A stretch of 64,000 nucleotides of DNA from Eledone cirrhosa (taxonomy: Eukaryota). How positions within the stretch are numbered: the stretch's first letter is position 1; every line of letters begins with the position of its first letter. Positions 6,002-62,663 of this stretch are shown in pieces. The notes under the pieces were generated by a model. It saw nothing but the letters and a program-made list of their open reading frames with translations. It did no database searches and had not been told where the DNA came from. The DNA is taken from positions 38,626,001-38,690,000 of the forward strand of contig OZ024743.1 of assembly GCA_964016885.1 (NCBI GenBank), read 5' to 3'. The translations under genes were made by a program, and so were the position numbers.

Positions 6002-6521
6002 ATTATACAGATTAATGTTCAGAGCCATCCTCAGCATTCTCGTGTAACACATACACCACTGTAGCAACGAAGAGAGGGATCTTCAGGTCTTTGCGTAGGT
6101 CCGATTTCCAGACCGATCTCAATGTGTGGCACGCCACCCTGGCTTTGCTTTTTCTCTCAACCACATCATCCTCTCTTTTCCCAATCTTTGGTCCCAAATA
6201 GAGGAAGTCCTCAGCCAACTGCAGCTGCTTCCCGTCTACATTCATAATTTTCTCTGGATGAAGAACTCAGAGATGTACGGGAGCCTCATAAATGCCAGCT
6301 CGAATGTCACACAGTGGAGACTTAGGCTAGCTGGACATGCTCAGCGATATTCGGAGTTGAGAATGCAATCAGTGCTCCTGTGGGTAACTCTACACTAACA
6401 TACTGGAATAGAAAGACCGAGGTTGACATATATTGATGCCCTAAGAAGAGACAAAAGAAATGGCGGTGATGATGAAGGACAGAGAACGCTGGAGAGAACT
6501 GGTCCATGGATCTCAGGAATT
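6002..6521. mobile_element. RTE-clade LINE 3' fragment with internal inversion
   Basis: Minus part encodes EDFLYLG..WKSDLRKDLKIPLFVATV; plus part encodes RLRLAGHAQRYSEL..VLLW and ends ccatggatctcaggaattt like the copies at 18.3 and 48.3 kb. Confidence 0.8.
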
Positions 6522-9500
6522 TAGGATTTACAGAAACCCTTGAAGCTAGATTTAACACCTTTCTAGTGGGTCCGGGTATGATTTTACATTCATTTAAATT
6601 ATTGATGTATTGTTTTATTGATATTTTTTATCTGTTTGTCCCGAATCTTCTATTATCGATTTTTTATCGTATGGTTGATTGTAGACTTGTTCTATATGTG
6701 ACGGTATTTTAACGATAGTTATAGCTCTGATTCATCTGAATTATTGAGCCCTCTGCCGCTCATTTCGAATTTTGTTTATCGTGAACTCGTGCGCCGATTT
6801 TTCGATACTCGATCTTTCTAATATTTTTAGCTCTGGACATAGCTATCCACCAGTTAATTTTATTGCTCATTTTTTGTCGATTCTATTGAGTGATGAATAG
6901 CTTTTGTTTTATTTTAACATGTCTATTGAGCACTCTTATTCGATATGTGTATTTCCACATTCCCTCGAATAGTTTTCGCGGATATGGAGGTTATCTCCCT
7001 TGTCTAATGCCATGTGCGTTTTTCACTGGTAGTTAGCCCCTTTTCCGCTAGGAAAAAAGCTCGTTGAGAAAGTAAACTCCGTTCCTCTTGCTCTAGTAGG
7101 CTTTTATATTTATATGTGAGCTGATAGAGTACAGTCTAAGGATTTACAGAAACCCATGAAGCTAGATTTAACACCTTTCTAGTGGGTCCGGGTATGATTT
7201 TACATTAATTTAAATTATTGATGTATTGTTTTATTGATATTTTTTATCTGTTTGTACCGAATCTTCTATTATCGATTTTTTATCGTATGGTTGATTGTAG
7301 ACTTGTTCTATATGTGACGGTATTTTAACGATAGTTATAGCTCTGATTCATCTGAATTATTGAGCCCTCTGCCGCTCATTTCGAATTTTGTTTATCGTGA
7401 ACTCGTGCGCCGATTTTTCGATACTCGATCTTTCTAATATTTTTAGCTCTGGACATAGCTATCCACCAGTTAATTTTATTGCTCATTTTTTGTCGATTCT
7501 ATTGAGTGATGAATAGCTTTTGTTTTATTTTAACATGTCTATTGAGCACTCTTATTCGATATGTGTATTTCCACATTCCCTCGAATAGTTTTCGCGGATA
7601 TAGAGGTTATCTCCCTTGTCTAATGCCATGTGCGTTTTTCACTGGTAGTTAGCCCCTTTTCCGCTAGGAAAAAAGCTCGTTGAGAAAGTAAACTCCGTTC
7701 CTCTTGCTCTAGTAGGCTTTTATATTTATATGTGAGCTGATAGAGTACAGTCTAAGGATTTACAGAAACCCATGAAGCTAGATTTAACACCTTTCTAGTG
7801 GGTCCGGGTATGATTTTACATTCATTTAAATTATTGATGTATTGTTTTATTGATATTTTTTATCTGTTTGTCCCGAATCTTCTATTATCGATTTTTTATC
7901 GTATGGTTGATTGTAGACTTGTTCTATATGTGACGGTATTTTAACGATAGTTATAGCTCTGATTCATCTGGATTATTGAGCCCTCTGCCGCTCATTTCGA
8001 ATTTTGTTTATCGTGAACTCGTGCGCCGATTTTTCGATACTCGATCTTTCTAATATTTTTAGCTCTGGACATAGCTATCCACCAGTTAATTTTATTGCTC
8101 ATTTTTTGTCGATTCTATTGAGTGATGAATAGCTTTTGTTTTATTTTAACATGTCTATTGAGCACTCTTATTCGATATGTGTATTTCCACATTCCCTCGA
8201 ATAGTTTTCGCGGATATAGAGGTTATCTCCCTTGTCTAATGCCATGTGCGTTTTTCACTGGTAGTTAGCCCCTTTTCCGCTAGGAAAAAAGCTCGTTGAG
8301 AAAGTAAACTCCGTTCCTCTTGCTCTAGTAGGCTTTTATATTTATATGTGAGCTGATAGAGTACAGTCTAAGGATTTACAGAAACCCATGAAGCTAGATT
8401 TAACACCTTTCTAGTGGGTCCGGGTATGATTTTACATTCATTTAAATTATTGATGTATTGTTTTATTGATATTTTTTATCTGTTTGTCCCGAATCTTCTA
8501 TTATCGATTTTTTATCGTATGGTTGATTGTAGACTTGTTCTATATGTGACGGTATTTTAACGATAGTTATAGCTCTGATTCATCTGAATTATTGAGCCCT
8601 CTGCCGCTCATTTCGAATTTTGTTTATCGTGAACTCGTGCGCCGATTTTTCGATACTCGATCTTTCTAATATTTTTAGCTCTGGACATAGCTATCCACCA
8701 GTTAATTTTATTGCTCATTTTTTGTCGATTCTATTGAGTGATGAATAGCTTTTGTTTTATTTTAACATGTCTATTGAGCACTCTTATTCGATATGTGTAT
8801 TTCCACATTCCCTCGAATAGTTTTCGCGGATATAGAGGTTATCTCCCTTGTCTAATGCCATGTGCGTTTTTCACTGGTAGTTAGCCCCTTTTCCGCTAGG
8901 AAAAAAGCTCGTTGAGAAAGTAAACTCCGTTCCTCTTGCTCTAGTAGGCTTTTATATTTATATGTGAGCTGATAGAGTACAGTCTAAGGATTTACAGAAA
9001 CCCATGAAGCTAGATTTAACACCTTTCTAGTGGGTCCGGGTATGATTTTACATTAATTTAAATTATTGATGTATTGTTTTATTGATATTTTTTATCTGTT
9101 TGTACCGAATCTTCTATTATCGATTTTTTATCGTATGGTTGATTGTAGACTTGTTCTATATGTGACGGTATTTTAACGATAGTTATAGCTCTGATTCATC
9201 TGAATTATTGAGCCCTCTGCCGCTCATTTCGAATTTTGTTTATCGTGAACTCGTGCGCCGATTTTTCGATACTCGATCTTTCTAATATTTTTAGCTCTGG
9301 ACATAGCTATCCACCAGTTAATTTTATTGCTCATTTTTTGTCGATTCTATTGAGTGATGAATAGCTTTTGTTTTATTTTAACATGTCTATTGAGCACTCT
9401 TATTCGATATGTGTATTTCCACATTCCCTCGAATAGTTTTCGCGGATATAGAGGTTATCTCCCTTGTCTAATGCCATGTGCGTTTTTCACTGGTAGTTAG

Positions 9501-10510
9501 CCCCTTTTCCGCTAGGAAAAAAGCTCGTTGAGAAAGTAAACTCCGTTCCTCTTGCTCTAGTAGGCTTTTATATTTATATGTGAGCTGATAGAGTACAGTC
9601 TAAGGATTTACAGAAACCCATGAAGCTAGATTTAACACCTTTCTAGTGGGTCCGGGTATGATTTTACATTCATTTAAATTATTGATGTATTGTTTTATTG
9701 ATATTTTTTATCTGTTTGTCCCGAATCTTCTATTATCGATTTTTTATCGTATGGTTGATTGTAGACTTGTTCTATATGTGACGGTATTTTAACGATAGTT
9801 ATAGCTCTGATTCATCTGGATTATTGAGCCCTCTGCCGCTCATTTCGAATTTTGTTTATCGTGAACTCGTGCGCCGATTTTTCGATACTCGATCTTTCTA
9901 ATATTTTTAGCTCTGGACATAGCTATCCACCAGTTAATTTTATTGCTCATTTTTTGTCGATTCTATTGAGTGATGAATAGCTTTTGTTTTATTTTAACAT
10001 GTCTATTGAGCACTCTTATTCGATATGTGTATTTCCACATTCCCTCGAATAGTTTTCGCGGATATAGAGGTTATCTCCCTTGTCTAATGCCATGTGCGTT
10101 TTTCACTGGTAGTTAGCCCCTTTTCCGCTAGGAAAAAAGCTCGTTGAGAAAGTAAACTCCGTTCCTCTTGCTCTAGTAGGCTTTTATATTTATATGTGAG
10201 CTGATAGAGTACAGTCTAAGGATTTACAGAAACCCATGAAGCTAGATTTAACACCTTTCTAGTGGGTCCGGGTATGATTTTACATTCATTTAAATTATTG
10301 ATGTATTGTTTTATTGATATTTTTTATCTGTTTGTCCCGAATCTTCTATTATCGATTTTTTATCGTATGGTTGATTGTAGACTTGTTCTATATGTGACGG
10401 TATTTTAACGATAGTTATAGCTCTGATTCATCTGAATTATTGAGCCCTCTGCCGCTCATTTCGAATTTTGTTTATCGTGAACTCGTGCGCCGATTTTTCG
10501 ATACTCGATC

Positions 10511-10518
<8 letters not shown>
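6522..10518 (+). repeat. Tandem array, ~6.5 x 616-bp near-identical units (retrozyme-like)
   Basis: taaggatttacagaaaccc recurs at 7137, 7753, 8369, 8985, 9601, 10217 (period 616); ends in (TA)n; related 609-bp unit at 50167-51038. Confidence 0.97.
7114..7205 (+). ncRNA. Candidate non-canonical hammerhead-like motif (one per 616-bp unit)
   Basis: atgtgag-CTGATAGA-gta c agtc taag gatt tac a-GAAA-ccc..gctaga..tctagt ggg-TC-cgggtatgat-tttacat; extra nucleotide in the core and a displaced stem I. Confidence 0.4.
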
Positions 10519-10553
<35 letters not shown>

Positions 10554-33199: not shown

Positions 33200-36100
33200 A
33201 CAGCCGCATGACCAGAGTAGGTCCATTCACACGGGCCATTCTCGCCACATTCACGCACCTTTCAGCAAATGTATTGGGGGGCAGCACTTCTCTCTACACC
33301 CTCACCTTCCTTTCCAAGTGAAACTTGAAAGAGTTGATGAGGGATTGGCAGAAGAGAAAAGTGTCTGTCTTCAGTCCTTTCAACTTCGTCCACCATACAA
33401 CCTCTTTCGCTACAGCCACCAGACAGAGGAACATTTCCTGCCATTCCTGACCAAAAGAAGGCGGCGGGTCGATCTTCAATATGGACTCGGCCGATAGCCG
33501 GATCCGTTCTACAGCCGACGGCAGCTGTTCGACATAACTCCACAAGTCAGTAATGCACGGACACTGTACGAGTGCGTGCAGAACGGTTTCGTTGCTCTGC
33601 GCCAATCTCGGGCACGTACGTCTGACAGCACTTCCGTGCCTGTAGAGTTTATTTCGAACCGTTAGTGCCTCCCGGTAGCACTGCCAAGCGAGGGATTTTA
33701 GGAAATTATCCATCGTCCCCGGCTCGAAAGTCCTCTTAAACAGACTGGTTAGTTAGATTTGGTCGACTCCAAGAGCCTCTCCGAGTGCGTCGTCACACTT
33801 GCCCACCACTAATGCCCTATAGAACTCGAGAGTGGAAGTTCCACTGAACGCATTGCCCGCTTGGTAGAGGGCAGTGAGTGCCTGGCAACATTCCAGATGC
33901 CAGTCACCCAGTCTCGGTCTCTTCTTGACCCTGGACTGCAGCTCAGTCAAAGAAACGGGCTCCGGAAAGGCCCGTCTGACAACCGGCAAACACACCTGTT
34001 CAACGTTCAGGCAGAATATCTGGAGATGCCGCAGCCTTAGCGCGTGTCTGAGCAACATTAGCCACGGCATGCCCAGCCCTCCACGTAGAGGGTGCCGGCA
34101 GCAGATGGACCGCCTCACCAGCGGAACCTGACCCCTCCACAAGAATCTGAAGAGGAGCCGCTCCAAGATGGCGAGGCGCGAACGGGTGCAATGGACGACG
34201 GTCAGACGGTAGTAGGTGACGGACTCGATGTACACTTTCGCCACCGCCACCGGACCTTTCAGTGATAGCTTCTTCCCAGCCCATTTCTGGGTGAGACTGG
34301 CTACCCTTCCCGTCACATCGTCCCAATTCTTATCCACCTGGAGGTCTTGCCCGAATCAAACCCCGAGCGACTTTACCGGTCCGTCCGTCCAGCGCCTGAC
34401 GACGCTGTTGGACGGCATGGACTTGCTTCTCCATGTGCCGAGTTGCAAGCCCACCGACTTTTCCGGGTCAAGTTTTGTTCCCGTCAACCTCTCATATTCC
34501 TCCAAGAATTTGCCGACCACCTCGATGTCTGAGGTGTCCGACACCATCACGGTGATATCGTCCGCATAAGCCGACACAGCCTTTCCGCGTCCCGGTTCGA
34601 GCAGGATACCCTGCAACAGCTCCAGCTTCCGCAGTAAAGGCTCGAGAGTCAATACGTACAGAAGGGAGGAGAGAGGACACACTTCAGGGACCGATCGGGA
34701 GACTTGAAACGGTTTCGAGAGGTGGTCATTAATTTTGACCACCGAGAAGGTGCTGCTGTGCATTGCAGCGATCCAGATTCTGAAGACTGGGCCGAAGTCA
34801 ACCGCCTTGAGGACAACCTCCAGGTACCGATGGTCGACCCTATCGAATGCTTTCCATTGATCTAAATTGATCAGAACCCCACCGAAGCCAGGTTTACACC
34901 CTACCCTCTCTATGATGTATCGTATTAGGTGGAGATTGTCGTGTATGGACCTGGTTGGGATTGCGCAATTTGCGCCTCCCCAACCAAATCCCCGACCACA
35001 AGCGCCAACCTCTTCGCTAATACCCTGGCCAAAATCTTAAACTTTGTGTTGACTGGGTTATGGGCCTGAAATAGTCTAATGTGTCCGTCTTGTTCTCGTA
35101 TTTCCTTATCAACGTCACTACGCCCCGGCTCACGGAACTGAGAATACTCCCGTTTTGAGGCCAGTTGCAGTAGAGGGCTTCGAGGAGATTGGAGAACAAG
35201 TAGTCTGGCATATTGATGTAAATCTCGTAGGGAAGACCATCCAAACCGGGTGACTTGCGCCTCATGCAGCCGGCAAGGGCATCCTGAATCTCGGCTGAAG
35301 TCATTTGCCTTTCGCAGCGTCCATCATCAGCTGTCGAGAATTGCGGCAAACCATCGATGTAGGGAATGAAGTCCGCCACCGTATATGACTCGCCACTTCT
35401 CTCGAACAACCGAGCAAAATGTTGACGAAAGGCCACACATCCGCTTGGAATCGCTCAGCTCGTGTCCGTCTCGGTCCGTCAAAGACCGAATCGTGGTTTT
35501 ATTACCACGCTGTGCCTCTGCCACGCGGGTCCATCGAACAGCTTTGGTTCCCTTGTTCCTCAGAGCATGCGCCTTAGCTCTGACAATGCAACCTTCGTGT
35601 TTCGCATTGAAAAAATGGTCTAATGTGACTCTTGCCGTTTGCACGTCAGTTGCAATGTCACTACCAATAGCCTCGTCTAACTTATCTTCAAACTTCCCCT
35701 CCTTTCTATTTTTTTCTAACGCTACTTCTTTCCTAAACTCTATCGACATTACTCTAATCTCTCTTTTGAGAGTCCCCCACCATCTATTGTTGACGACGCC
35801 CCTGTCAACCTTTACTTAACTAAATTGTTGACCCGGTCCCTGTAAGCCTTACGTGCCGGAAATGACATGTTTAGCTTCCAGTAACCAGGTCCTAACCTAC
35901 GCGTCTTATCTTGGTCGACCATACAGATCACAAACTTGTGATCTGAATAGGCGACCGTTTGAAATCGGGGAGAGCTTACACTATTTCTGTCTATTTCCCT
36001 AAATAATATCCTGTCTATATACAATCTAGATGACCCTATGCGGTTAGTCCAGGTCAACACTGACGCATTAGGGAAATCTAGTCGGTACATGTCAGACAGT

Positions 36101-36618
36101 CGGAACTGGCTGATCAGGTTCTTGAGGCTTTTGCACCACCCGATCCTATCGGATACTCCCACACAGTCCCAGCGTACGTCTAAGATGTCGTTCCAGTCCC
36201 TCTCTAACAGTAAAGGGCGAGACTTACCCAGAAAGGCTTCCACGCGTCTAAAGAAGTCCGGCCGTCCTGCCCCAGTAGGGGAATAGGCGGCCACCAGTCT
36301 AAAGGCGCCACCTTTGTTATTGTTCACGTCCAGGACAACCAAATTCCCGTGCAGGTCGCGGAAGATCGACCTAACCTCGAGAACCAGGCCTTTGCTAAAC
36401 AGCACTGCCGCCCCGCCTCCCATTCCCGGCCGGCTAACAGATGTAAATATATGTTAGTCGTCGAAAATGTGGGCCTGGTGTGCGCGTGTCGGAAATCCTG
36501 ATCTCGCTGACGGCAATTACATTAATTTCTAGAGACCTGAGGTCGTTGAGCAGGTGACCCTGCCTCCAAGGCGATCCCAGGCCTCGAATATTTAAATTTC
36601 CTACTCTTAATTCGGCAT
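33200..36618 (-). pseudogene. ORF2: apurinic endonuclease + reverse transcriptase + Cys motif, disrupted
   Basis: VGNLNIRGL, GGGAAVLF, DWNDILD, IDRI, SDHKFV, GPGYWKLN, KSPGLDGLP, FRPIT, CPLSSLLY, AYADD, GGLGMP, CPR..ETVLHALVQCP. Confidence 0.92.
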
Positions 36619-37381
36619 TGTTATAAGGTTAAAAAGAGAGAGAGGAAAAGTTTACTTACCTTCCGGGCTCTTGTGAAGGGCGGGTGGTTCGACCTCCATA
36701 GTTGGTGGGGTTTCTTTTGGGAACCCCGTTAAAAGTCTTGAAGTGGGTTTTACGTTCGGGGTTCCCACGTCCCGAGGAAAGGTGTCTCGTATATATTTGT
36801 ATAAATCGAGCGACATTCGCACCAGAAACAATTCTTCCAGCAGGCGAAATGTGCTCGATTTAAAAAGTTCCCCATCTTTTTGTATATTTTCACTTCCTGC
36901 TACGAGGGCCATCAGTGCCTTGTTGGGTCTCCTGACGAGCACGAAGTTTTGTATGTTTTGTTGATGTGATTTTATTTGTTTCCGTGGCTGTGGTGGTGAT
37001 GGTTTTGGTGGTGGTGTTTCGGTTGTGTCTGTGTTTGTCGTGATTACGGTGTCTGTGGTTTCAGATGTTTGTATGTGTATATGTTCTTGCGTCTGTTTAG
37101 GTTGTTCGTGTTTGGGGGATTCTGGTGATGGTGATAGAGGTGTTGATGTTGGTGTTATTGGAGAGATGTTTGCGTGGGTGGTGTCTGCATTTTTTTTATT
37201 GTGGGTGATTTTGTGTTTGTTGATATTTTTTTTCCTTTTTGTGTTTCCTTTTCTGTATTTGGGGGGATTTTTGTTTTCCCTCATCTTTACAACTGGTAGA
37301 TGAGGTGTCTGTGTCTGTAAGTGTGTCTGTGTGTATGTTTATGTTTTTATTGGTGTGTGTATTTATGAGGGGAGGGTGAAT

Positions 37382-38590
37382 TTAACAACTTTCCTCGTTT
37401 CCCCCCTGGGTGATCAATGTTGGTGGTGGTCTTTCATATGGTGTTGTTGGTGGTTTTGCCGATGCTGGTGTTGGTTGTGGTCCTCTCCCCGGAGTCGGCA
37501 GCAGTGGAGCCTTTGGACCCCTTGCATCTTTCAGCAGTTGAGGGAAGAAGGCTCGCAAATAGGTTTTTCCCCCACAAACAAAACAATGCGGCCTTTTCCC
37601 CTCGGTCATAATATGAATGACGGTCCCATTCTGAAGGCGGATGTGGTCCGGGATTTTCTTCACGTTCTCGGGCCTGATCTGGAGCAGTATCTCCAGGTCA
37701 ACCCCGGACCAGTCCCCTCTGGCCGTTCTGGTCACTTCTATCGGGACGGTATCCATCCCCTCCACAATCACACATCCCAGTCCTGGTGGGATTCTGGGAA
37801 TGCGGAGACGGGCCGTTTTTTTTCCCATGTGGGAGGGGTACATAATGACCTTGCTCGTTTTGCAAGGAGTCATAGCGTGTTTCATAGCGAGGGCTTCTGA
37901 ATTGAACAGCATCGAAATGGTGCCGTACTGACTGCCCCTCGCTATGTATTCGGTGTATTCTCTGATGCACCTCAGCGCGAATTCGATATCTGCTTGTGGA
38001 ATTAAAGCTGCCCGTTTGGTTTGTGCTGAGATGCATCTATAATGGACCGTTCTGCGCTCCACTGCCTCAATAGCTTCTACCGGGACAGTTAAATAGGCCC
38101 AGGTTTGCTCTTGCTTGATGAGCTTCCAGGCTTGGGCCAACTTTTCATATTTGTTTGAGAGGTCCATGTTGAAGTATGGCCTCTTTTTTTGCTGCTGCCG
38201 CAGCGAAAGTGTTCTTCTTGTGTCGTAGGGGGTGTTGTTGTTGTTGTCGATGTTCTTGTTGGTGTTGTTCTTATCACTGTCGCAGTTATCATTGGTACCG
38301 TTGATATTGTTGCTGTTGGTGTTGTCGCTATTCGTTTTCATGTTAGTGGTGTTGATATTATTGTTGCATTTGTCATTTTTTCTATTATCTGTATTTTCGT
38401 TGTCGATGTTACTGTCATTTTTTTCAAAATTAGAGTTCTCAGTGTTGTTATCATTGGTGTCTATGTTTACATTGTTTGTGGTGGTGTTTGTTGTATCAAT
38501 TTCTGTTAATCTTGCCGTAGCGCTCCTCTCAACTTCTGCGTCGTTGTCGCACGACAGCATATATATCGCTGGGGCGCGTGGCTGAGCCAT
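37382..38590 (-). pseudogene. ORF1 (gag-like nucleic-acid-binding protein), probably continuing into 36652-37284
   Basis: MAQPRAP start, Asn/Thr-rich N-terminus, decayed knuckle RPHCFVCGGKTYLRAFFP, upstream of ORF2. Confidence 0.75.
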
Positions 38591-38824
38591 TTTTTTTTCG
38601 TTTTTTTTTCGATAATTTAAAAAGAATGTAAAAGAGTTCAAATATTTGGGCCAAAAGGCCCAACTATTATTCTTTCCTATTCACAGGGCTAAGTCAAAGG
38701 GCTTGTATGCCTTTCACAACAACAAAATTCAACAAATAAGTGTTGACAGATAAATAAATAAACTTACGGGAGCGAGCAAAAAGACGTCCGTTCAGACTCA
38801 ATAATAATAATAATAATAATAATA

Positions 38825-48286: not shown

Positions 48287-48741
48287 TCTAAGGCGGGTAA
48301 AATTCCCGAGATCCATGGACGAGTTCTCTCTAGCGGTCTCTGTCCCTCATTATCGCTGCCATATCCTGCATCTCCAACAGACCAGTGTCTGTCCTTAGGG
48401 CATCAACATATGTTAACCTTGGTCTTCCTCTGCTAGTGTGTCCATGTAGGGGCTCCCAAAGGAGCACTGAGTGCAATGTCAACTCTGGATGTCGGTGAGC
48501 ATGTCCAGCCAACCTCAGTCTACTCTGTGTCAATTTTGAGCTGACTTTTGGGATGCTCCCATACAGCTCTGTGTTTTTCATCCTCAGTGTATACTGATTA
48601 ATGTTCAGAGCCATCCTCAGCTTTCTCGTGTAGCACCCATCCACCATCGTAGAGACCTGAAAATCCGCCTCTTCATTGCTGTAGTGGAGTCTGTGCTGCT
48701 GTGTGGGTCTGATACTTGGACACTGACCAAGAGACTCACTC

Positions 48742-48745
<4 letters not shown>
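48287..48745 (-). mobile_element. RTE-clade LINE 3' fragment with inverted 5' piece
   Basis: Minus MVDGCYTRKLRMALNI..RLRLAGHAHRH..; 48651-48743 on plus encodes the upstream RDLKIRLFIAVVESVLLCGSDTWTLTK. Confidence 0.88.
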
Positions 48746-48784
<39 letters not shown>

Positions 48785-48880
48785 TATATGTATATATATA
48801 TATATATAAAGAAAAAGGGATGAAATCGAAAATGCAACTGAAGTCTTATTTTTTTTTTAAATATATATATTTATTTGGTT

Positions 48881-50166: not shown

Positions 50167-50168
<2 letters not shown>

Positions 50169-51038
50169 CATCTTTCTAGCGGGTCCGGGTATGCTTTTTA
50201 CATTCATTTGATTTATTGATTTATTGATTTTTTATCTGAGTGTCCCGAACCTTCCGATCGCAACTTTTCGATCGTACGGTTGATTATAGACTTGTTCTAT
50301 TTGTGACGGTATTTTAACGATAGTTATAGCTCTGATTTATCTAAATTATGGAGCCCTCTGCCGCTCATATCGAATTTTGTTTATCGTGAACTCGTGCGCC
50401 GATTTTTCGATACTCGATTATTCTACTATATTTAGCTCTAGACCTAGCTATTGACCAGTTAATTTTATTGTTCATTTTTTGTCGATTCTATTAAATGATG
50501 AATAGCTCCTGTTTATTTTAACATGTCTATCGAGCACTCTTATTCGATATGTGTATTTCCACATTTTCCCGAATATTTTTCGCGGATATAGAGGTTATCT
50601 CCCTTGCCGATTTCCATGTGTGTATTTAGCTTGGGTTATGCCTTTTTATTCGTTTGGACAAAACTAGTTGAGGAAGTAAATTTCCTGTCCACTGGTATCT
50701 AGAAGTCTTATATATTTTTATGTGAGCTGATAGAGAACAGTTTAAGGATTAACAGAAACCCAAGAAGCTAGATTTAACATCTTTCTAGCGGGTCCGGGTA
50801 TGCTTTTTACATTCATTTGATTTATTGATTTATTGATTTTTTATCTGAGTGTCCCGAATCTTCCAGATCGCAACTTTTCGATCGTACGGTTGATTATAGA
50901 CTTGTTCTATGTGTGACGGTATTTTAACGATAGTTATAGCTGTGATTTATCTAAATTATAGAGCCCTCTGCCGCTCATAACGAATTTTCTTTATCGTGAA
51001 CTCGTGCGCCGATTTTTCGATACTCGATTATTCTACTA
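50167..51038 (+). repeat. 1.4 x 609-bp unit, diverged relative of the 616-bp array
   Basis: aacatctttctagcgggtcc at 50167 and 50776; same 3' terminus region (gatttttcgatactcgat..ttcta) then (TA)n. Confidence 0.95.
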
Positions 51039-51042
51039 TATA

Positions 51043-55091: not shown

Positions 55092-58000
55092 GCGAAGGAA
55101 ATGTGGTAAGGAACCAGGTGGACCATAACGCACCAAAGTACTCAATACTTGAGGTAGTAGAGTGGGTAATAGGAACCAGTAAGACCCCGACAGCTGAGCT
55201 GAAGCCGTTTAGACGGCTAATTCTGGACTAAATGAAAATTTATCCTGGTATTTAAATAGCCGATCTTCTCAAGGGGTTATTCCATATATGGTCAAAGTGA
55301 TTGTCAAAAATCAGTAGTAAGTCTGTGGATGCAAATTAGTAGGGGAGATGGTGGCTAAACCTGCCAGTAGGAGAAAGAGGGGAGGGGGTGGAGTAGACCC
55401 AATCAGGCGTTTGTAGTGCCAGCTACAGCTGGGCATGAGGTCAAAGAAGATACAGGGGAGGGGGAGGAAGTCGGAACGGTAGTTAGAACAATGGGGGGTA
55501 GAAAAATATAGGAAAGAAAAAATACTGAGAGTGAAGAAAAGCAAATAAGTGTAAAGAAAAACAAATGAGTGTAAAGAAAAAAGTAAAGTAAATTAAATTC
55601 TACGACCTAGGTCTCTAGCTATTGTTAGGCTAGAATAAATAAATAAATAAAGAAAGAAAGAAAGAAGTAAAGAAAGAAATAAAGAAATAACGAAATAAGT
55701 AAAAGAACTAGGTGGGACGAAATAGGCGAGGACCCTTTTAAGAGGTATAAGGACGTAAATGATACGGTGACGGGTCAACAAAAGGGGCCAAAATACTAAA
55801 GAGACTACCACGAAATAAACAATAAAGGTTTCCATCCCGGGCACAATTCCAGCAACCACCCAGTGCAGCAAAGTGAACTAATACGAGATAATAATTCTGA
55901 GTCCCGAGAAAAATATATACTAATGCTAACTCTAAAAGATCTAAAACAAGCTACATGAAAGTTCGTACGAAGTAAAGGTAGAATACGGAAAAATAAATTC
56001 AGAATCCACCCCGCCCAAAATAAAAGCGAAGAAAGAAATACTGAAACGAAAAAATAAGGCATAAGTGTCACTAAGAAATATAGAGGGCACAGAGAATAGT
56101 GGGAGCGGTCGGAAAAAGGGGACAAGTATCCGGGGTCTAAACCAACTGCTATAAAGGGCGGAGTCCGCCAAATCTATCCTAGACTAGGGGAGGGGGTGGG
56201 GGTACTAAGGCTACAAGGGGCCAAAGGGCAGCCTCGGGTGGGCGAGAAAAGACGCCGACAAAGGAGAAGAGCTGGGGTAGAAGGACTAAGGAGAGAGAGG
56301 GGAAGGAAGGAAATAAAGGAAGCGATAAAAGAATACAAAGAAGATCTTACGTCTCCCTTGGCAAGCAGGGGTTACCCATTGAAAAATCGGCAAGTGGGGT
56401 GTTATAGCCCTAGTCTACCCCCCCCGGGTCATTATGGGGTTTGAGGGCGAGGGAAGTCCGACGCAATCTATGTTCACATGCAGTAACCAGTTCATCTTTC
56501 TTGTTTAGGAGTTGGTCCGTCGAAAACAGCATTTGTAAAGTTTCCTCCGAGCATAAATTGCACGGACGGCGTCCTCCCGTGTAAGAATTGGCTCCGGACA
56601 GTAATCTCCAAGTGAGATCATAGGTGATGTTGTTGTCGTTGAGGTCCCATATGTGGCCAGAAAGTGTAGTGGCGTGACGCCGGGCCGGGTTTCGGAAGGT
56701 ATGTCTATGTTGGTATAGCCGGGTCTTGAAGTCACATGCGGTAAGTCCTATATAGGCTTTGTTGGAGGTATCCGTCCTCACGTTGCACTGGTAGATCACA
56801 TTACGGTCTCTGCATCTATTGTCGAGTGGGCAAATAGATCTATCCGGGCAGTTACACCTCCTGGTCGGTTCTCCACTGCTATTTAGGTTATTTCTGCCAT
56901 CGGGGTTGAGTTTTTTGTTGTTAGAGGAGACGATGTTTTGTGCGAAGTTTGGTTTAGTGCTGTAAGAGAGTTTGATGGTATTTTTGTTAATTATGTTGTG
57001 GTAGCGGTGTTGTAATGGGAAGTGTTTTTCAATGAGCCTAAAGAATAGTTTCCCGATGGGAGTTGTCACCTCTGCGTTGTGGGGAGGATTGAACCATGTT
57101 ACATTGCGTGAGCAGCGGCGGTGTCTCCTGCTGGTTCCGCTAATGGGAGCTGGATAGTAGGATATTTCCTCCCGGAAACCACTCCGCTTGAGGGCCTGGT
57201 TGTAATAAGGCGCATGTTCATCGAATATCCGCTCATTCGCTGACAAACGGGATATGCGGAGGGAGATGTTTTTGACCAGGTTGTTTGTGATGTTCCTAGG
57301 ATGGTTTGATCGGCGGTGGATGTAGTGCAGATTGTCATTAGGTTTCCTGTATGGGTAGTACAGGTCGTTTTCGAGGTCGAGGGTCATGTCCAGGAAGTTT
57401 ACTCTGGTCAGGGACGTTTGTAGGGTTATTTTAAATCCCCAGTCTCGGAAGAATCTGATTAATTGTTTCTGGACCCGATCTGTACTACTGGGGTTGTACC
57501 CTTTAAGGGTAAGGAGCCCATCATCACGGTACAATCCACCACCGAATGCAGGAAACATATCAGTGAGTTTGGCTATTAGGAATAATCCTATAAGATCTGT
57601 GACCTCCGCCGAATGCGTGGCGCCCATGCTGATGTCGAAGGGTGAGTCGGGAGCTCTTTTTATCCATTTAGAGTCGTCAAAGAGAAAGACTGTCTTCCTG
57701 GCGTGGAGGATGATTTTTCTTTCCTGGTCGGTGATGGGCACAAGTGTTTCGGCGAAGTCCAAGGCGGCAGTAAGTAGCGGTAAGGTGATTGAAGCATAGT
57801 AGCTCTCTATGTCGAACTGTATGAATTTAGTTTCTCGTTTATCCTCCATATTGCTGAACCAGGAGCTTACTTCCTGGGTGTTGATCCATAGGCTAAGTCG
57901 GGTGTGTTGCTTGACTTTTGGTATCACGCGGTCTAGGATTTTTTTGCTGATTCTCCCTATGTCGGACTTCGTTGGGTTAATAAGCCTGATAGAGGGTTTA

Positions 58001-58852
58001 CGGTCAAAATCGGATTTATGGTCCTTCAGTGTGAAGTATGGTGTCCGTGGGTCTAGAGGTTCCGTGCGGTCGGCGACCCCGAGGCTGGAGGTGATTTGTT
58101 GTCCATCTCGATTTATGTCCTCGATGCAAGAGTGGTTGGCCTTTTTATAGGTAGAGTTTAGGCTGCTCCTGATCAGTGTGTGGTATCTGTCAGGGTTGAC
58201 AAAGTATAGGTTCCCAGTTTTATCCGAATGCACCATGATGTCATTTGTGTTATCATACACTGTTAGGTTGCTACGGAGTTTTTGTAGGAATCGGTTGTGT
58301 CTGGGTTTAAATTTAATGTTCTTGACCAGTTGGAAGAGGTCATTCTCGAAGGGTGCGAACAAGGGGTTCAGGGGCGGAGATTTGTAGGTAATAAATCCGA
58401 ATCTCTCCTTGGTGCCGAAGTCTTGGTTGTCGCAATATCTGTCATAGAAAAAAGTTCTCCATCTAAGTCTTTTCGCAAATAGATCGATTTTTTGCGTGAG
58501 CATCCGAAGGTAAAGTTTTTTCGGTGGGATTGGGATGTTCTTGGTAGAGAAGTCAATGTTGTGTTTTCGCATGGTGCGGGTGAAATGAATTGAGCTTAGC
58601 GGAAAAGTCTGGATACGGCGTGGTAGGGTCGGAAAGTGCTCTACTACGGGGGTAGGAGCTAGATAGCAAAGGAAATGTGGTAAGGAACCAGGTGGACCAT
58701 AACGCACCAAAGTACTCAATACTTGAGGTAGTAGAGTGGGTAATAGGAACCAGTAAGACCCCGACAGCTGAGCTCAAGCCGTTTCGACGGCTAATTCTGG
58801 ACTAAATGAAAATTTATCCTGGTATTTAAATAGCCGATCTTCTCGGCTATTT
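55092..58852 (-). mobile_element. Full-length Penelope-like element (Naiad-like) with ~175-bp pseudo-LTRs, in (TA)n
   Basis: Direct repeats 55096-55270 and 58669-58843 (2 visible substitutions), intact ORF, ~1.1-kb 3' UTR, small terminal inversion aaatagccga/tcggctattt. Confidence 0.95.
56410..58572 (-). CDS. PLE polyprotein: reverse transcriptase + C-terminal GIY-YIG endonuclease (720 aa)
   Basis: STKNIPIP..RLRWRTFF, SDKTGN, TLKDHK, RLINP, FDIESYY, SMGATHS, YRDDGL, NFLDMTL, CNC..CPL..C, VIYQC..YIGLT, CNLC; first ATG at 58572. Confidence 0.95.
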   Translation of the reverse strand: MRKHNIDFSTKNIPIPPKKLYLRMLTQKIDLFAKRLRWRTFFYDRYCDNQDFGTKERFGFITYKSPPLNPLFAPFENDLFQLVKNIKFKPRHNRFLQKLRSNLTVYDNTNDIMVHSDKTGNLYFVNPDRYHTLIRSSLNSTYKKANHSCIEDINRDGQQITSSLGVADRTEPLDPRTPYFTLKDHKSDFDRKPSIRLINPTKSDIGRISKKILDRVIPKVKQHTRLSLWINTQEVSSWFSNMEDKRETKFIQFDIESYYASITLPLLTAALDFAETLVPITDQERKIILHARKTVFLFDDSKWIKRAPDSPFDISMGATHSAEVTDLIGLFLIAKLTDMFPAFGGGLYRDDGLLTLKGYNPSSTDRVQKQLIRFFRDWGFKITLQTSLTRVNFLDMTLDLENDLYYPYRKPNDNLHYIHRRSNHPRNITNNLVKNISLRISRLSANERIFDEHAPYYNQALKRSGFREEISYYPAPISGTSRRHRRCSRNVTWFNPPHNAEVTTPIGKLFFRLIEKHFPLQHRYHNIINKNTIKLSYSTKPNFAQNIVSSNNKKLNPDGRNNLNSSGEPTRRCNCPDRSICPLDNRCRDRNVIYQCNVRTDTSNKAYIGLTACDFKTRLYQHRHTFRNPARRHATTLSGHIWDLNDNNITYDLTWRLLSGANSYTGGRRPCNLCSEETLQMLFSTDQLLNKKDELVTACEHRLRRTSLALKPHNDPGGVD

Positions 58853-59473: not shown

Positions 59474-59572
59474 GTATATATAGTATTAGTTATACTATTT
59501 ATGGTTATGTAAACACAAAACCTTAAGCAGTTGTAAGTATTTTACACACACCCTAAATAGTGGTAGGCAGTA

Positions 59573-61000
59573 ATGTATTACTACCTTATTACCAGTAAGT
59601 TAAGCGATGATGCACTTCTACTCATAGAATATAAAAAATTTAATATAGAAAGAACTAGAAAACAACTGCATAAGACATTCAAAAACTTTAACCTTAGTAT
59701 CACCATGGACAAAAACACTAAAAATGTTAACTTCCTAGACGCCACACTATACCTAGACTCAAAAATATATACACCTTTCCATAAGCCTAATGAGAAACTT
59801 ATTTACGTAGATACCAAGTCTAATCACCCTAGATCAATATTAAACTCTATCTCTAAGGGGGTGTCCGATAGAATCTCTAATCTGTCCTATGACGCAAACA
59901 TATTTAGCAAAAACTCACAATATTACAATCAAGCATTAGCTAGCTCCGGCCATAATATAGAAATAGAGTTCCTACCTAAGAAAACACATAGCTACAACAT
60001 CATCTCGCACAACATGTCCATGAGGAAATCTAATAATAGGAATAGCAACCACAAGTACACCAAAGCGGAGGGTGCCACCGGAAGTAACCATTACCATGGA
60101 AACTACTGTGAGGCCTTAGGAGGAAGCAACACACCAAACACTAAAAGCAAAAATAGAAGAAGAAATAATACATTTTTCAACCCTCCTTTCAACCTAAATG
60201 TCTCCACCAACATACCTAGGGCTTTCTTCTCACTACTAGATAAAAACTTCCCTCTAGGACACAAGTACCACAACCTCTTAAACAAAAACACCATTAAAAT
60301 CTCATACTCTACGACGCCTAACTTAGCATACCACATAGCTAGCAGCAATAATAGTAAAATTAGTTCTTACTTCCAACAAACAAAATCACAACGGGATGCA
60401 AACCCTCTAAATACCACTGTAGCAAGCAACAATAGCAACGGCAGTAACAATAGAAATAACACTAGTATAAGTAATAACACCAGGGTTGTCAACCTGAACA
60501 CCCAAAATCCTATATCCACCACACAGACTTCCGCATTGCATTATAACCAGCGGACTAACGCACAGAATAATTGTAACTGTAGAGCTAATAGAACCTGCCC
60601 TTTAGATAAAAAATGCCTAACCAAGGATGTCATATACTCATGCACAGTCACGACTAATAACTCTTCAGAAACCTATGTAGGCTCCACTTCTAACTGCTTC
60701 AAAATTAGATATAACTCGCACATCCACTCGTTCAAAAAGCACAGCCTAGCCAACTCCACCTCACTTTCTAGCTACATACACTATCTAAAATCTAAAAATA
60801 AACCATACACACTCAAATGGGAAGTGATAGGCAGCGCGACCTCGTACAAACCACCTAATAAATTCTGTAACCTCTGTATACTAGAGACACACAATATTAT
60901 CTTCTCCAACCGTAACCTACTTAACAAAAAATCTGAGGTGTTTGCAACTTGCCAGCACCGCCTCAGACATTCCTTCCAAAACTTTAAGCCCTATATATAG
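59573..61000 (+). pseudogene. Truncated PLE RT (from the DD motif) + GIY-YIG with Asn/Ser-rich insertions
   Basis: SDDALL, VNFLDATL, KSNHP, FFNPPF, NKNTIKISYS, CNCRANRTCPLDKKC, VIYSC..YVGST, CNLC. Confidence 0.9.
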
Positions 61001-62431
61001 CAATGTCGGACTGGAACCTAACACCACATCTAGCATCAAACACCAGAGACACACCCTATACTACATACCCAACACTAGCTGATGCATTATAACACAAACA
61101 ACGACATCCCTCTGGAACCCTTCGCAGGGAAAATACCCATTTATACCTCTACGGCAGGTGTGACAACATCCACCCACCTGGACGGCACTACACCGCTCTA
61201 AGGGTAATTTGAGCATGAATCGATCGGTTGGATGGTGTTGGGCAGAGGAAACACCTTCCTTAGACAGATGTAAAATGATTTAATCGAGTAGCGCTGTTGA
61301 CCAGTAGGACCGGGCTGCTGAGCGCAGTGAGTGAATGCAATGCAACTGCCGTGCGGGTTGTACGTATATGGATGATCTGACGGTCAGAGAGGGGTCGCGA
61401 GGACTACGGATTGACCTTTGGCCTGCCTGGGGACGATTATCTTTCGACATCCAATGTAGCAAGCGATGACCCAGATCTTACCAGAGATCATTGGGTCCTG
61501 AAGCAATCCTGCAATCACCGCGCCTGGTTATATGAGCAGACTACAACCACAGAGATCATTAATTTAGAATCCTCGCTCATCATCTATAATTTCCATTTGT
61601 AGCACCTTAAGATGGGTTAATCCACATTAATAATAATATGATCTCCTTCAGCATAATTTAGTTAAACTATATAGTTAGTACACTTTATGCTTTAAAAGTC
61701 TCTCTTGGAAGGTGCACCTCACCATAGAATTTAGGGTCCATATTGGGACACATTTTAATGGCTAGATATAGAAACCCCAGAGTTACCTCCCCGCATGCAT
61801 TAACTCCCCTTAGCCACACACACACTTCCGGTATTCAATGGCGTCTCTCGAAACGTAACAACCTCCTGTATCGAACTAAGGAACACCAGACTACGATCTC
61901 TAACTGGATTGTCGTGGATTATGTGAAAGGCATATAATCGAAATATACACTCCCTTGACCATGAAAATGCCGAAGTACATGAATTACGTGACATCCCTGC
62001 GTTGTGCATCTCCAATACTTATAACACTTTTAATGCTTGCACTATCTTTAATGTTTATAATATTTCTCCACACACAGACTACATCAATCATATAAAGACT
62101 TTGCCACCAGATCTACCAACCTAACACTCTTATTTACCTACCTAAGTGCCTCTACCACACATATCTCTCTGCCACACTATATAAACAAGACGCACATGCG
62201 TGCCACACATATAACATTTGCACTATATAACCACTTATCTTCATGTTGTACTTTAAACTATATCTTTGATTGTACCTATTAATATAAATGTAATCTCGAA
62301 GTGTGTACTGCCACTCTAAATTTTGTAATGAATGTTGACCCACAATGTTTGAATATGTATCAATGTTTGAATATGTATTGGTATGTCTCTCGGCTGAAAA
62401 GGAGGTCATATAACTGTCCATGCATTAATAA

Positions 62432-62484
62432 ATTGCTCCGAAGAATCCAAACCTCGGTTTGGAGGAAACAGCTGTAAGCACAAT
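62432..62484 (+). ncRNA. Type I hammerhead (U4C core) at the PLE 3' end
   Basis: tgct CCGAAGA a tccaaac ctcg gtttgga g GAAA cagctg TA agca. Confidence 0.75.
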
Positions 62485-62663
62485 AATGTTTTGAACAGTT
62501 CTTTGATTCTTATATTTCATATGTATATATATATACATATATATGTATATATATATACATATATATGTATATATATATACATATATATATATATATACAT
62601 ATATATTTATATATATATACATATATATGTATATATATATATATATATATATACATATATATT

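Follow-up and report, generated by a model that had tools for sequence, protein, structure and literature searches.

Retrozyme units of 170-400 nt, with circles, were described in animals by Cervera and de la Pena (2020, PMC7229834), and circles were proposed by Cervera for Penelope-like elements (PLEs) as well. Li, Clavereau and Pollet (2026, bioRxiv 10.64898/2026.07.22.740005) regard retrozymes as non-autonomous PLE derivatives of 51-972 bp; they report cleavage in one of nine elements tested and favour local amplification. For PAc, a Poseidon PLE of the green anole, Frangieh et al. (2024, PMC11167929) showed that reverse transcription starts internally and that the ribozyme is dispensable in vitro. 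Whether the tandems of PLEs and retrozymes come from a circle, from read-through RNA or from local expansion, and whether hammerheads are needed for them, is an open question. Here we describe a tandem array of 616-bp units in a stretch of 64,000 nucleotides of Eledone cirrhosa (assembly GCA_964016885.1, contig OZ024743.1, positions 38,626,001 to 38,690,000, forward strand). This whole stretch is called the window, and positions refer to it. We consider it likely that the unit is a non-autonomous PLE of the retrozyme type, whose RNA, longer than one unit, is copied from a fixed internal position by target-primed reverse transcription. Its hammerhead-like motif is probably a relic without efficient self-cleavage.

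Results

The 616-bp family ends at one position

The array (6523-10520, plus strand) comprises 6.5 non-coding units of 616 bp arranged head-to-tail, which differ from unit 2 by 0-5 substitutions each. No open reading frame (ORF) of at least 150 codons was found in it. Its end, ..CTTTCTAAT, is followed by a (TA)n target repeat at 10517-10550, which has no strand. A single unit re-phased to finish at the fixed 3' end lies at 7441-8056 (plus strand), and its positions are given as U1-U616. The window contains one more insertion (50167-51039, plus strand), with 1.4 units of a second family and (TA)n on either side. This copy is 84-85% identical to the window unit, terminates at the identical unit position and begins about 30 nt further into the unit than the window array. 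The first-pass annotation had noticed that the two copies share an end point and start differently, and this was borne out.

We searched the genome (3.0 Gb) with the window unit and obtained 2,046 candidates, 40 of which were scored. All 40 stopped at query 301-303, which is one unit position, before (TA)n. Family 2 gave 2,279 candidates, and 36 of the 39 scored stopped at the same position as family 1. The shared 3' end is not due to chance, because the exact end-plus-TA pattern matched 702 times in the genome and the reversed control not once. In the window array this end lies at 10511-10520 (plus strand; internal equivalent 7431-7440), where reverse transcription would start internally with ATAT microhomology to the target. 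The best-conserved part of the unit extends about 110 nt to each side of the fixed end (7340-7550, plus strand; 82-95% invariant columns in 40-column windows across five subfamilies). By analogy with the anole PLE (PMC11167929), it is a candidate binding region for the reverse transcriptase (RT).

Insertions were mapped for the first 100 consecutive matches, ten of which were left open by the fetched length or by a gap. The 5' ends were ragged genome-wide. Twenty-two insertions measured at most 252 bp and 64 were longer than one unit; 47 traversed the GUC described below twice, and 18 were at least 3 kb long. The longest one reached approximately 16 kb, and multimers reached approximately 27 units. 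TA was present at the 5' junction in 33 of the 45 resolved cases of the second sample, and one copy (L029) was 5'-inverted. Exact whole-unit insertions were seen in four of the 45 resolved cases (L207, L223, L234, L236). They ended at U2-3 and probably arise via the ATAT microhomology of the fixed end.

Units within arrays were very similar. Among 38 of 39 chosen arrays, with at least two full units, nine had identical units and the median was one difference. Most variants were private, and several arrays had variants common to blocks of units. The five subfamilies were 77-96% identical, that is 4-23% different. In the window array the unit variants follow the order C' A B C A B C, and two private changes are confined to unit 1. 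Judging from these variants, a block of three units was probably duplicated exactly after insertion or by assembly, so that approximately 3.5 units would have been inserted and three added locally or in the assembly.

Multimers that are dispersed, vary at their 5' ends and share a fixed 3' end therefore indicate a retroposed concatemer and not an ordinary satellite. This is what the annotation had proposed, and collecting copies and mapping their ends, the check it had suggested, extended it to the whole genome (40 of 40 ends, 702 junctions, multimers). As in non-LTR retrozymes, the family is a small non-coding tandem repeat in dispersed copies. It also has the traits of non-autonomous PLEs, namely a fixed 3' end, 5' truncation, and head-to-tail and inverted insertions at microsatellites.

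At another locus (L263:7743-8594) we found a 647-bp tandem relative, with homology around the start of reverse transcription (E ~1e-9), which adjoins a family-2 unit directly. The hammerhead-like block was not seen in this relative.

Only the 3' half of the hammerhead-like block is conserved

The motif elements listed in the first-pass annotation were all found in the unit: the CTGATAGA box (7121-7128, plus strand), GAAA (7149-7152), stem III, which carries a 5-nt bulge, and the GUC ending in C7188. The displaced ATGTGAG/TTTACAT helix, its proposed stem I, was present as well, and so were the change of a G-U pair to G-C in stem III and the weaker stem II of family 2. The box stands in place of the hammerhead CUGANGA; it is non-canonical and lost in sister families. 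Further, a conserved block at 7147-7196 (plus strand) comprises CAG-AAACCC, the bulged hairpin and GGGTCCGG-GTA. It matches a hammerhead's 3' half, with GAAA, stem III and the GUC at C7188, and it can also be read as an acceptor, a 42-nt exon and a donor.

The hammerhead fold had a free energy of -4.3 kcal/mol vs -18.6 for the best fold, which places it 14 kcal/mol above the latter. Pairing probabilities were 0.04 for the stem II pairs and 0.00 for G2.1-C1.1. In an alignment of 12 distinct close relatives, none of the 20 pairs showed compensatory changes, stems I and II included, and the second stem II pair was broken in eight of the 12. Covariation, which the annotation had named as a check on the motif, was confined to the upper helix of the stem III hairpin, where five of nine consensus pairs changed on both sides, a result that is partly alignment-dependent. 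The superfamily consensus retained the hairpin only, in the other GGGT register; neither stem I nor stem II was part of it.

We compared the box in 191 contexts. The position of CUGANGA was occupied by CTGATAG in 107, by CGGACGG in 33, by CAGACAG in 16 and by other sequences in 21, while 14 were unassigned. CUGANGA was found in none of the 191 and U4 was free; neither the type I box nor its U3-A8 variant occurs there. CAG preceded AAACCC in 188 contexts, and GTA or GTG followed GGGTCCGG in 185. The superfamily does have the GAAA/stem III/GUC part (G12-A13-A14-A15.1, U16.1-H17). For the members among the 363 matches described below, the search pattern itself imposes this invariance, which it does not for families found by similarity. 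Taken together, the unit has no complete type I hammerhead (no CUGANGA, a proximal stem I of only 1 bp, a broken stem II).

Other PLE-type hammerheads of this genome have stem II between CUGANGA and GAAAC, with one extra base on each flank, and in this register the unit has A8 and G9. A search against Rfam with gathering and E-value thresholds gave no matches to the unit, and it also missed the complete-core hammerhead of L327 and L328. We also considered a cut after the second GUA, type II and III topologies and a hairpin ribozyme, using the general consensus motifs of these topologies. They were rejected, as the downstream ACCCG is not followed by a CUGA and a stem I cannot be formed.

A profile search identified a distant sister, family X, with a 579-bp unit, 71% identity in aligned columns and 3,397 candidates. 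Its copies are 96-97% alike and have the same fixed end at TA, and 13 of 30 are longer than the unit. An exclusion-pattern search gave 363 further matches vs 0 for the control, and 27 of 30 fetched members had TA 166-252 nt 3' of the GUC. All sister families retain CAG-AAACCC, the bulged hairpin and GGGTCCGG-GT, and in them CTGATAG is replaced by CGGACGG or CAGACAG. In the members of the exclusion-pattern search the words on either flank of the hairpin are imposed by the pattern. The proposed stem I was absent from the families of the exclusion-pattern search and from family X. As judged from these alignments, only the 3' half of the hammerhead is conserved, in families that spread well. The loss of the CUGA box and of the proposed stem I in young, abundant, spreading sisters argues that the block is probably a relic without efficient self-cleavage. 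The claim of a new hammerhead variant, made in the annotation, is unlikely in view of the uncompensated stems, the unfavourable fold and the lost box.

The genome also contains a separate non-coding tandem family of approximately 518 bp (L327:1927-2520 and L328), which has 501 end junctions and whose type I hammerhead is complete. By their sequences, canonical retrozymes coexist in it with decayed ones. Approximately three of 30 ends of this family lie just after its own cut and three of 30 copies are longer than the unit; the family is old, rich in fold-backs and poorly mappable. Another CTGATAGA match, at locus L129, had no similarity to the unit or to PLEs. In about 1.1 Mb of fetched loci we observed PLE-type hammerheads of at least 10 different families, which have a palindromic stem III and one additional base at either side of stem II.

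5' ends accumulate near the GUC

Among the first 47 insertions, six of 16 sub-unit copies began 9-24 nt 3' of the GUC. For the next 53 insertions the interval U365-390 (7189-7214, plus strand) was fixed beforehand, and eight of 20 sub-unit copies (p = 1.3e-6) and three of 25 multimers began in it. When ends were pooled, 14 of 92 fell in this interval on the first pass vs 4 of 136 on later passes (Fisher p = 0.002; second sample alone p = 0.11). There were no 5' ends in the following 26 nt, which are equally AT-rich. In family X four of 30 ends lay just after the GUC (p = 0.04); this effect was weaker and not specific to the first pass (two on the second pass).

The 18 exact-end matches consisted of three internal variants, five ends right after the GUC, six at +4, two at +2 and two just before it. 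Read from the matched letters, 11 of 14 matches began 4-6 nt upstream of the GUC. We rejected a base-sharp pile-up at the cut site, as the edge is not sharp and ends spread from upstream to +4. These results suggest that a minority of templates, approximately 15%, have a 5' end near the GUC and are trimmed to the next TA microhomology. Such a pile-up could be produced by cleavage, by transcription starting there or by a splice donor. Copies with the spliced exon-exon junction gave no matches in the genome, and another search yielded three point variants only.

Penelope-like elements and other repeats of the window

The window carries a young, autonomous Hydra-clade-like PLE (55092-58848, minus strand) in which an RT is followed by a GIY-YIG endonuclease. 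It has pseudo-long terminal repeats (pLTRs) and ends in (TA)n. Its ORF (56410-58773) is open and encodes an RT-endonuclease of 720 aa. A Pfam search gave no family for this protein, and 1,960 of 8,000 scored database proteins matched it. The translation contains RWR (RWK-like), DKT, CxCx5C, CxxC and CxH motifs and a C-terminal endonuclease. Together with the (TA)n target this is the motif set of the Hydra clade (PMC8557442), to which the ORF is assigned by motif reading rather than by a tree. The element was rejected as a Naiad, since its endonuclease is C-terminal. At first look 95,007 candidates were obtained; its copies are put at 97-98% identity, with 97-100% for the 62 scored, and elsewhere the element forms 3.53-kb tandems (3-4-mers). 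The genome thus has an active autonomous PLE with the same (TA)n target, and approximately 95,000 candidates amount to a very large expansion, given the small number of families from which the clade has been described. The hammerhead of its 3' pLTR (55185-55276, minus strand) belongs to the published U3-A8 variant (PMC4209133), with a full 4-bp stem I and a change at G12 in this copy.

The helper of the 616-bp family is probably a PLE of the Hydra-clade type, of which the window PLE represents the type only. The word TAT|YTAGCTC is shared by the unit and the window PLE at the start of reverse transcription; it was not kept as a link, as the alignment is not significant.

A second, 5'-truncated PLE of the same type lies at 59483-62510 (plus strand). 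It has 33% amino acid identity to the window PLE, and in its minimal hammerhead, near 62440-62485, stem II is flanked on either side by one extra base. Short fold-back elements made of two inverted PLE pLTR ends, turning in hammerhead loop II, are very common in the fetched loci (L028, L063, L114, L126, L165, L186, L261 and others), and their 5' ends are concentrated 34-45 nt upstream of the cut. At L325 (G000:C10:27238500-27248400) a 2.57-kb segment with two cysteine-rich EGF-like exons and PLE fragments is repeated at least five times. On its 5' side the window array joins a LINE-like 3' fragment (6040-6522, plus strand) directly, without a TA spacer. Another such fragment lies at 48330-48845 (minus strand), for which a Pfam search gave no family; we take both to be of RTE type. 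A broken non-LTR retrotransposon with an RVT_1 domain (33294-38680, minus strand) is presumably L1/Tx1-like by its appearance.

Discussion

The fixed end and the conserved stretch of approximately 110 nt on either side of it fit target-primed reverse transcription that begins internally and uses a 3' binding element, as in the anole PLE. In such a process the GIY-YIG endonuclease of the helper PLE would nick (TA)n, and the ATAT of the unit would allow priming at the nicked target. The RT, bound to the conserved sequence lying 3' of the start, would copy in the 5' direction through a single unit or several, stopping where it dissociates or reaches the end of the RNA, and the cDNA or second strand would be joined by TA microhomology. 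Apart from the templates whose 5' end lies close to the GUC, the RNAs would be uncut read-through multimers or circles, and we regard these two as about equally probable. Circles may explain the long homogeneous arrays, and read-through RNA with local duplication may explain the same data without a working ribozyme.

Several observations weigh against a non-autonomous PLE with a relic motif. G2.1-C1.1, C3, G5 and the 3' half remain conserved, and the stronger first-pass pile-up of 5' ends is not predicted by a fully dead motif. The similarity between the unit and the window PLE pLTR was not significant, as 70 of 200 shuffles scored as high for the window unit and, with the best subfamily, 8 of 200 did; the search for a partner covered a minority of the PLE families in the 3-Gb genome. 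No PLE ORF was found running into the unit in the loci examined (~1.1 Mb). Two of the 100 arrays (L102, L146) adjoin PLE-end pieces directly, one of them exactly after the GUC. These chimeras were not accepted as proof of a helper, since 54 such pieces occur in the same loci and a chance origin is plausible. Finally, some arrays have blocks of shared variants, so local duplication also builds multimers.

What sets the RNA 5' end near the GUC can be read in more than one way. The block may, tentatively, be a transcription or splicing signal derived from a PLE pLTR, with linear read-through and local duplication and no circle. Such a signal, either a start site or an acceptor, a 42-nt hairpin exon and a donor, would fill in the account given above and not replace it. 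The nearly constant CAG and GTA/GTG flanks agree with it, and so do the YTRAY-like words that sister families have upstream, the six 5' ends that fall exactly at GT and the block duplication in the window array and others; PLE pLTRs are also known to hold a start site and an intron (PMC8557442; PMC4209133). However, exon-exon junction copies are missing from the genome, though PLEs are known to retain introns. The GT ends may come from GTA microhomology with impure TA repeats, and linear templates alone cannot lengthen arrays. It is unlikely that the motif is a working non-canonical hammerhead, perhaps as a dimer or with help from a protein, which cuts after C7188, with the 616-nt monomer ligated to a circle around which the RT would run. 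The accumulation of sub-unit 5' ends in the 26 nt after the GUC and not in the next 26, the five copies that begin exactly after it, long arrays of identical units and a whole-unit circular fold with z = -3.4 vs 40 shuffles would suit such a ribozyme, and protein-dependent cleavage by a PLE hammerhead has been published (PMC11167929). On the other hand, the lack of CUGANGA with a free U4, the absence of compensatory pairs in stems I and II and a consensus that keeps only the hairpin in the other register are difficult to reconcile with it. The exact ends, 11 at 4-6 nt upstream and six at +4 vs five at the cut, point the same way, and 78 of 100 inserts run through the site. We are more doubtful that the RNA is cut in trans, by the catalytic half of another element's ribozyme or within the ribonucleoprotein of the helper PLE, in which case the substrate half would be selected, the RNA would circularise without its own core and the retroelement would be a parasite of ribozymes. 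Another repeat family does contain a complete hammerhead with arms matching CGGGU and UUGC, found with a pattern designed for such arms (duplex 5+4 bp), and this match is weakened as evidence by the many hammerhead families of the genome.

Two further origins concern the tandem structure itself. Rolling-circle elements yield tandem copies and favour AT-rich sites, as the family does, and a non-autonomous DNA element of Helitron or Helentron type could be imagined. We find this very improbable, since the family has a fixed end followed by TA and not CTRR or a T-tract, ragged 5' ends with TA microhomology, the hammerhead half and a PLE-style context. An ordinary satellite grown in place by unequal exchange has practically no probability for the family as a whole, since its short arrays, which number in the hundreds and lie on many contigs, all stop at one base. 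The exact three-unit duplication and the block-shared variants of several arrays favour such growth, and it survives only for the three extra units of the window array.

A non-autonomous PLE with a decayed ribozyme would be of use for the open question named at the beginning. The genome offers young families of one architecture with catalytic boxes intact, decayed or missing, and hundreds of mappable ends. Their multimers share the fixed internal start, and the need for cleavage becomes directly testable. Our results also suggest that hammerhead-based screens miss such parasites.

Comparison with known systems

The 616-bp family resembles animal non-LTR retrozymes in its non-coding, low-GC tandem units, dispersed as monomers and multimers, in having one hammerhead-like motif per unit and in the presence of PLEs in the genome. 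The annotation had held that the unit is larger than typical retrozymes; this is true when Cervera and de la Pena (2020), with 170-400 nt, are taken as the standard and does not hold against the 51-972 bp of Li et al. (2026), a range that includes 616 bp. Retrozymes have a complete type I hammerhead, whereas the unit is without one, and no target-site duplication was seen. Self-cleavage and circular RNA belong to retrozymes and are hypothetical for the unit. In their available portions, PMC7229834 and bioRxiv 10.64898/2026.07.22.740005 map no fixed internal 3' end across a genome. A literature search, which included CUGAUAGA and CTGATAGA with hammerhead, gave no paper on this family or on the half-hammerhead superfamily, and the supplementary family lists (Li, Craig) may hold relatives.

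Chlamys MRC1-type elements are likewise non-autonomous PLE derivatives inserted in several copies arranged head-to-tail, and the Chlamys clade is described as mostly without canonical hammerheads, as is the unit (Craig et al. 2021, PMC8557442). Chlamys non-autonomous elements are reported to share 3' sequence with an autonomous family, whereas no such partner was found for the unit, which also differs in its (TA)n target and in a likely helper with a C-terminal endonuclease. Hydra-clade PLEs share with the unit the (TA)n target, tandem insertions and a hammerhead upstream of the 3' end (PMC8557442); the unit differs from them in having no ORF and no significant similarity to the window PLE pLTR. 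PAc is similar in its fixed internal start of reverse transcription, its need for 3' RNA and its AT-rich target, and its ribozyme could be dispensed with in vitro (PMC11167929). In contrast to the unit, PAc is an autonomous element with an intact C3-G8 core, and its priming needs no homology, while the end of the unit has ATAT microhomology. In summary, the element class is already known, and the conserved half-motif with an RNA 5' boundary nearby is the part worth testing.

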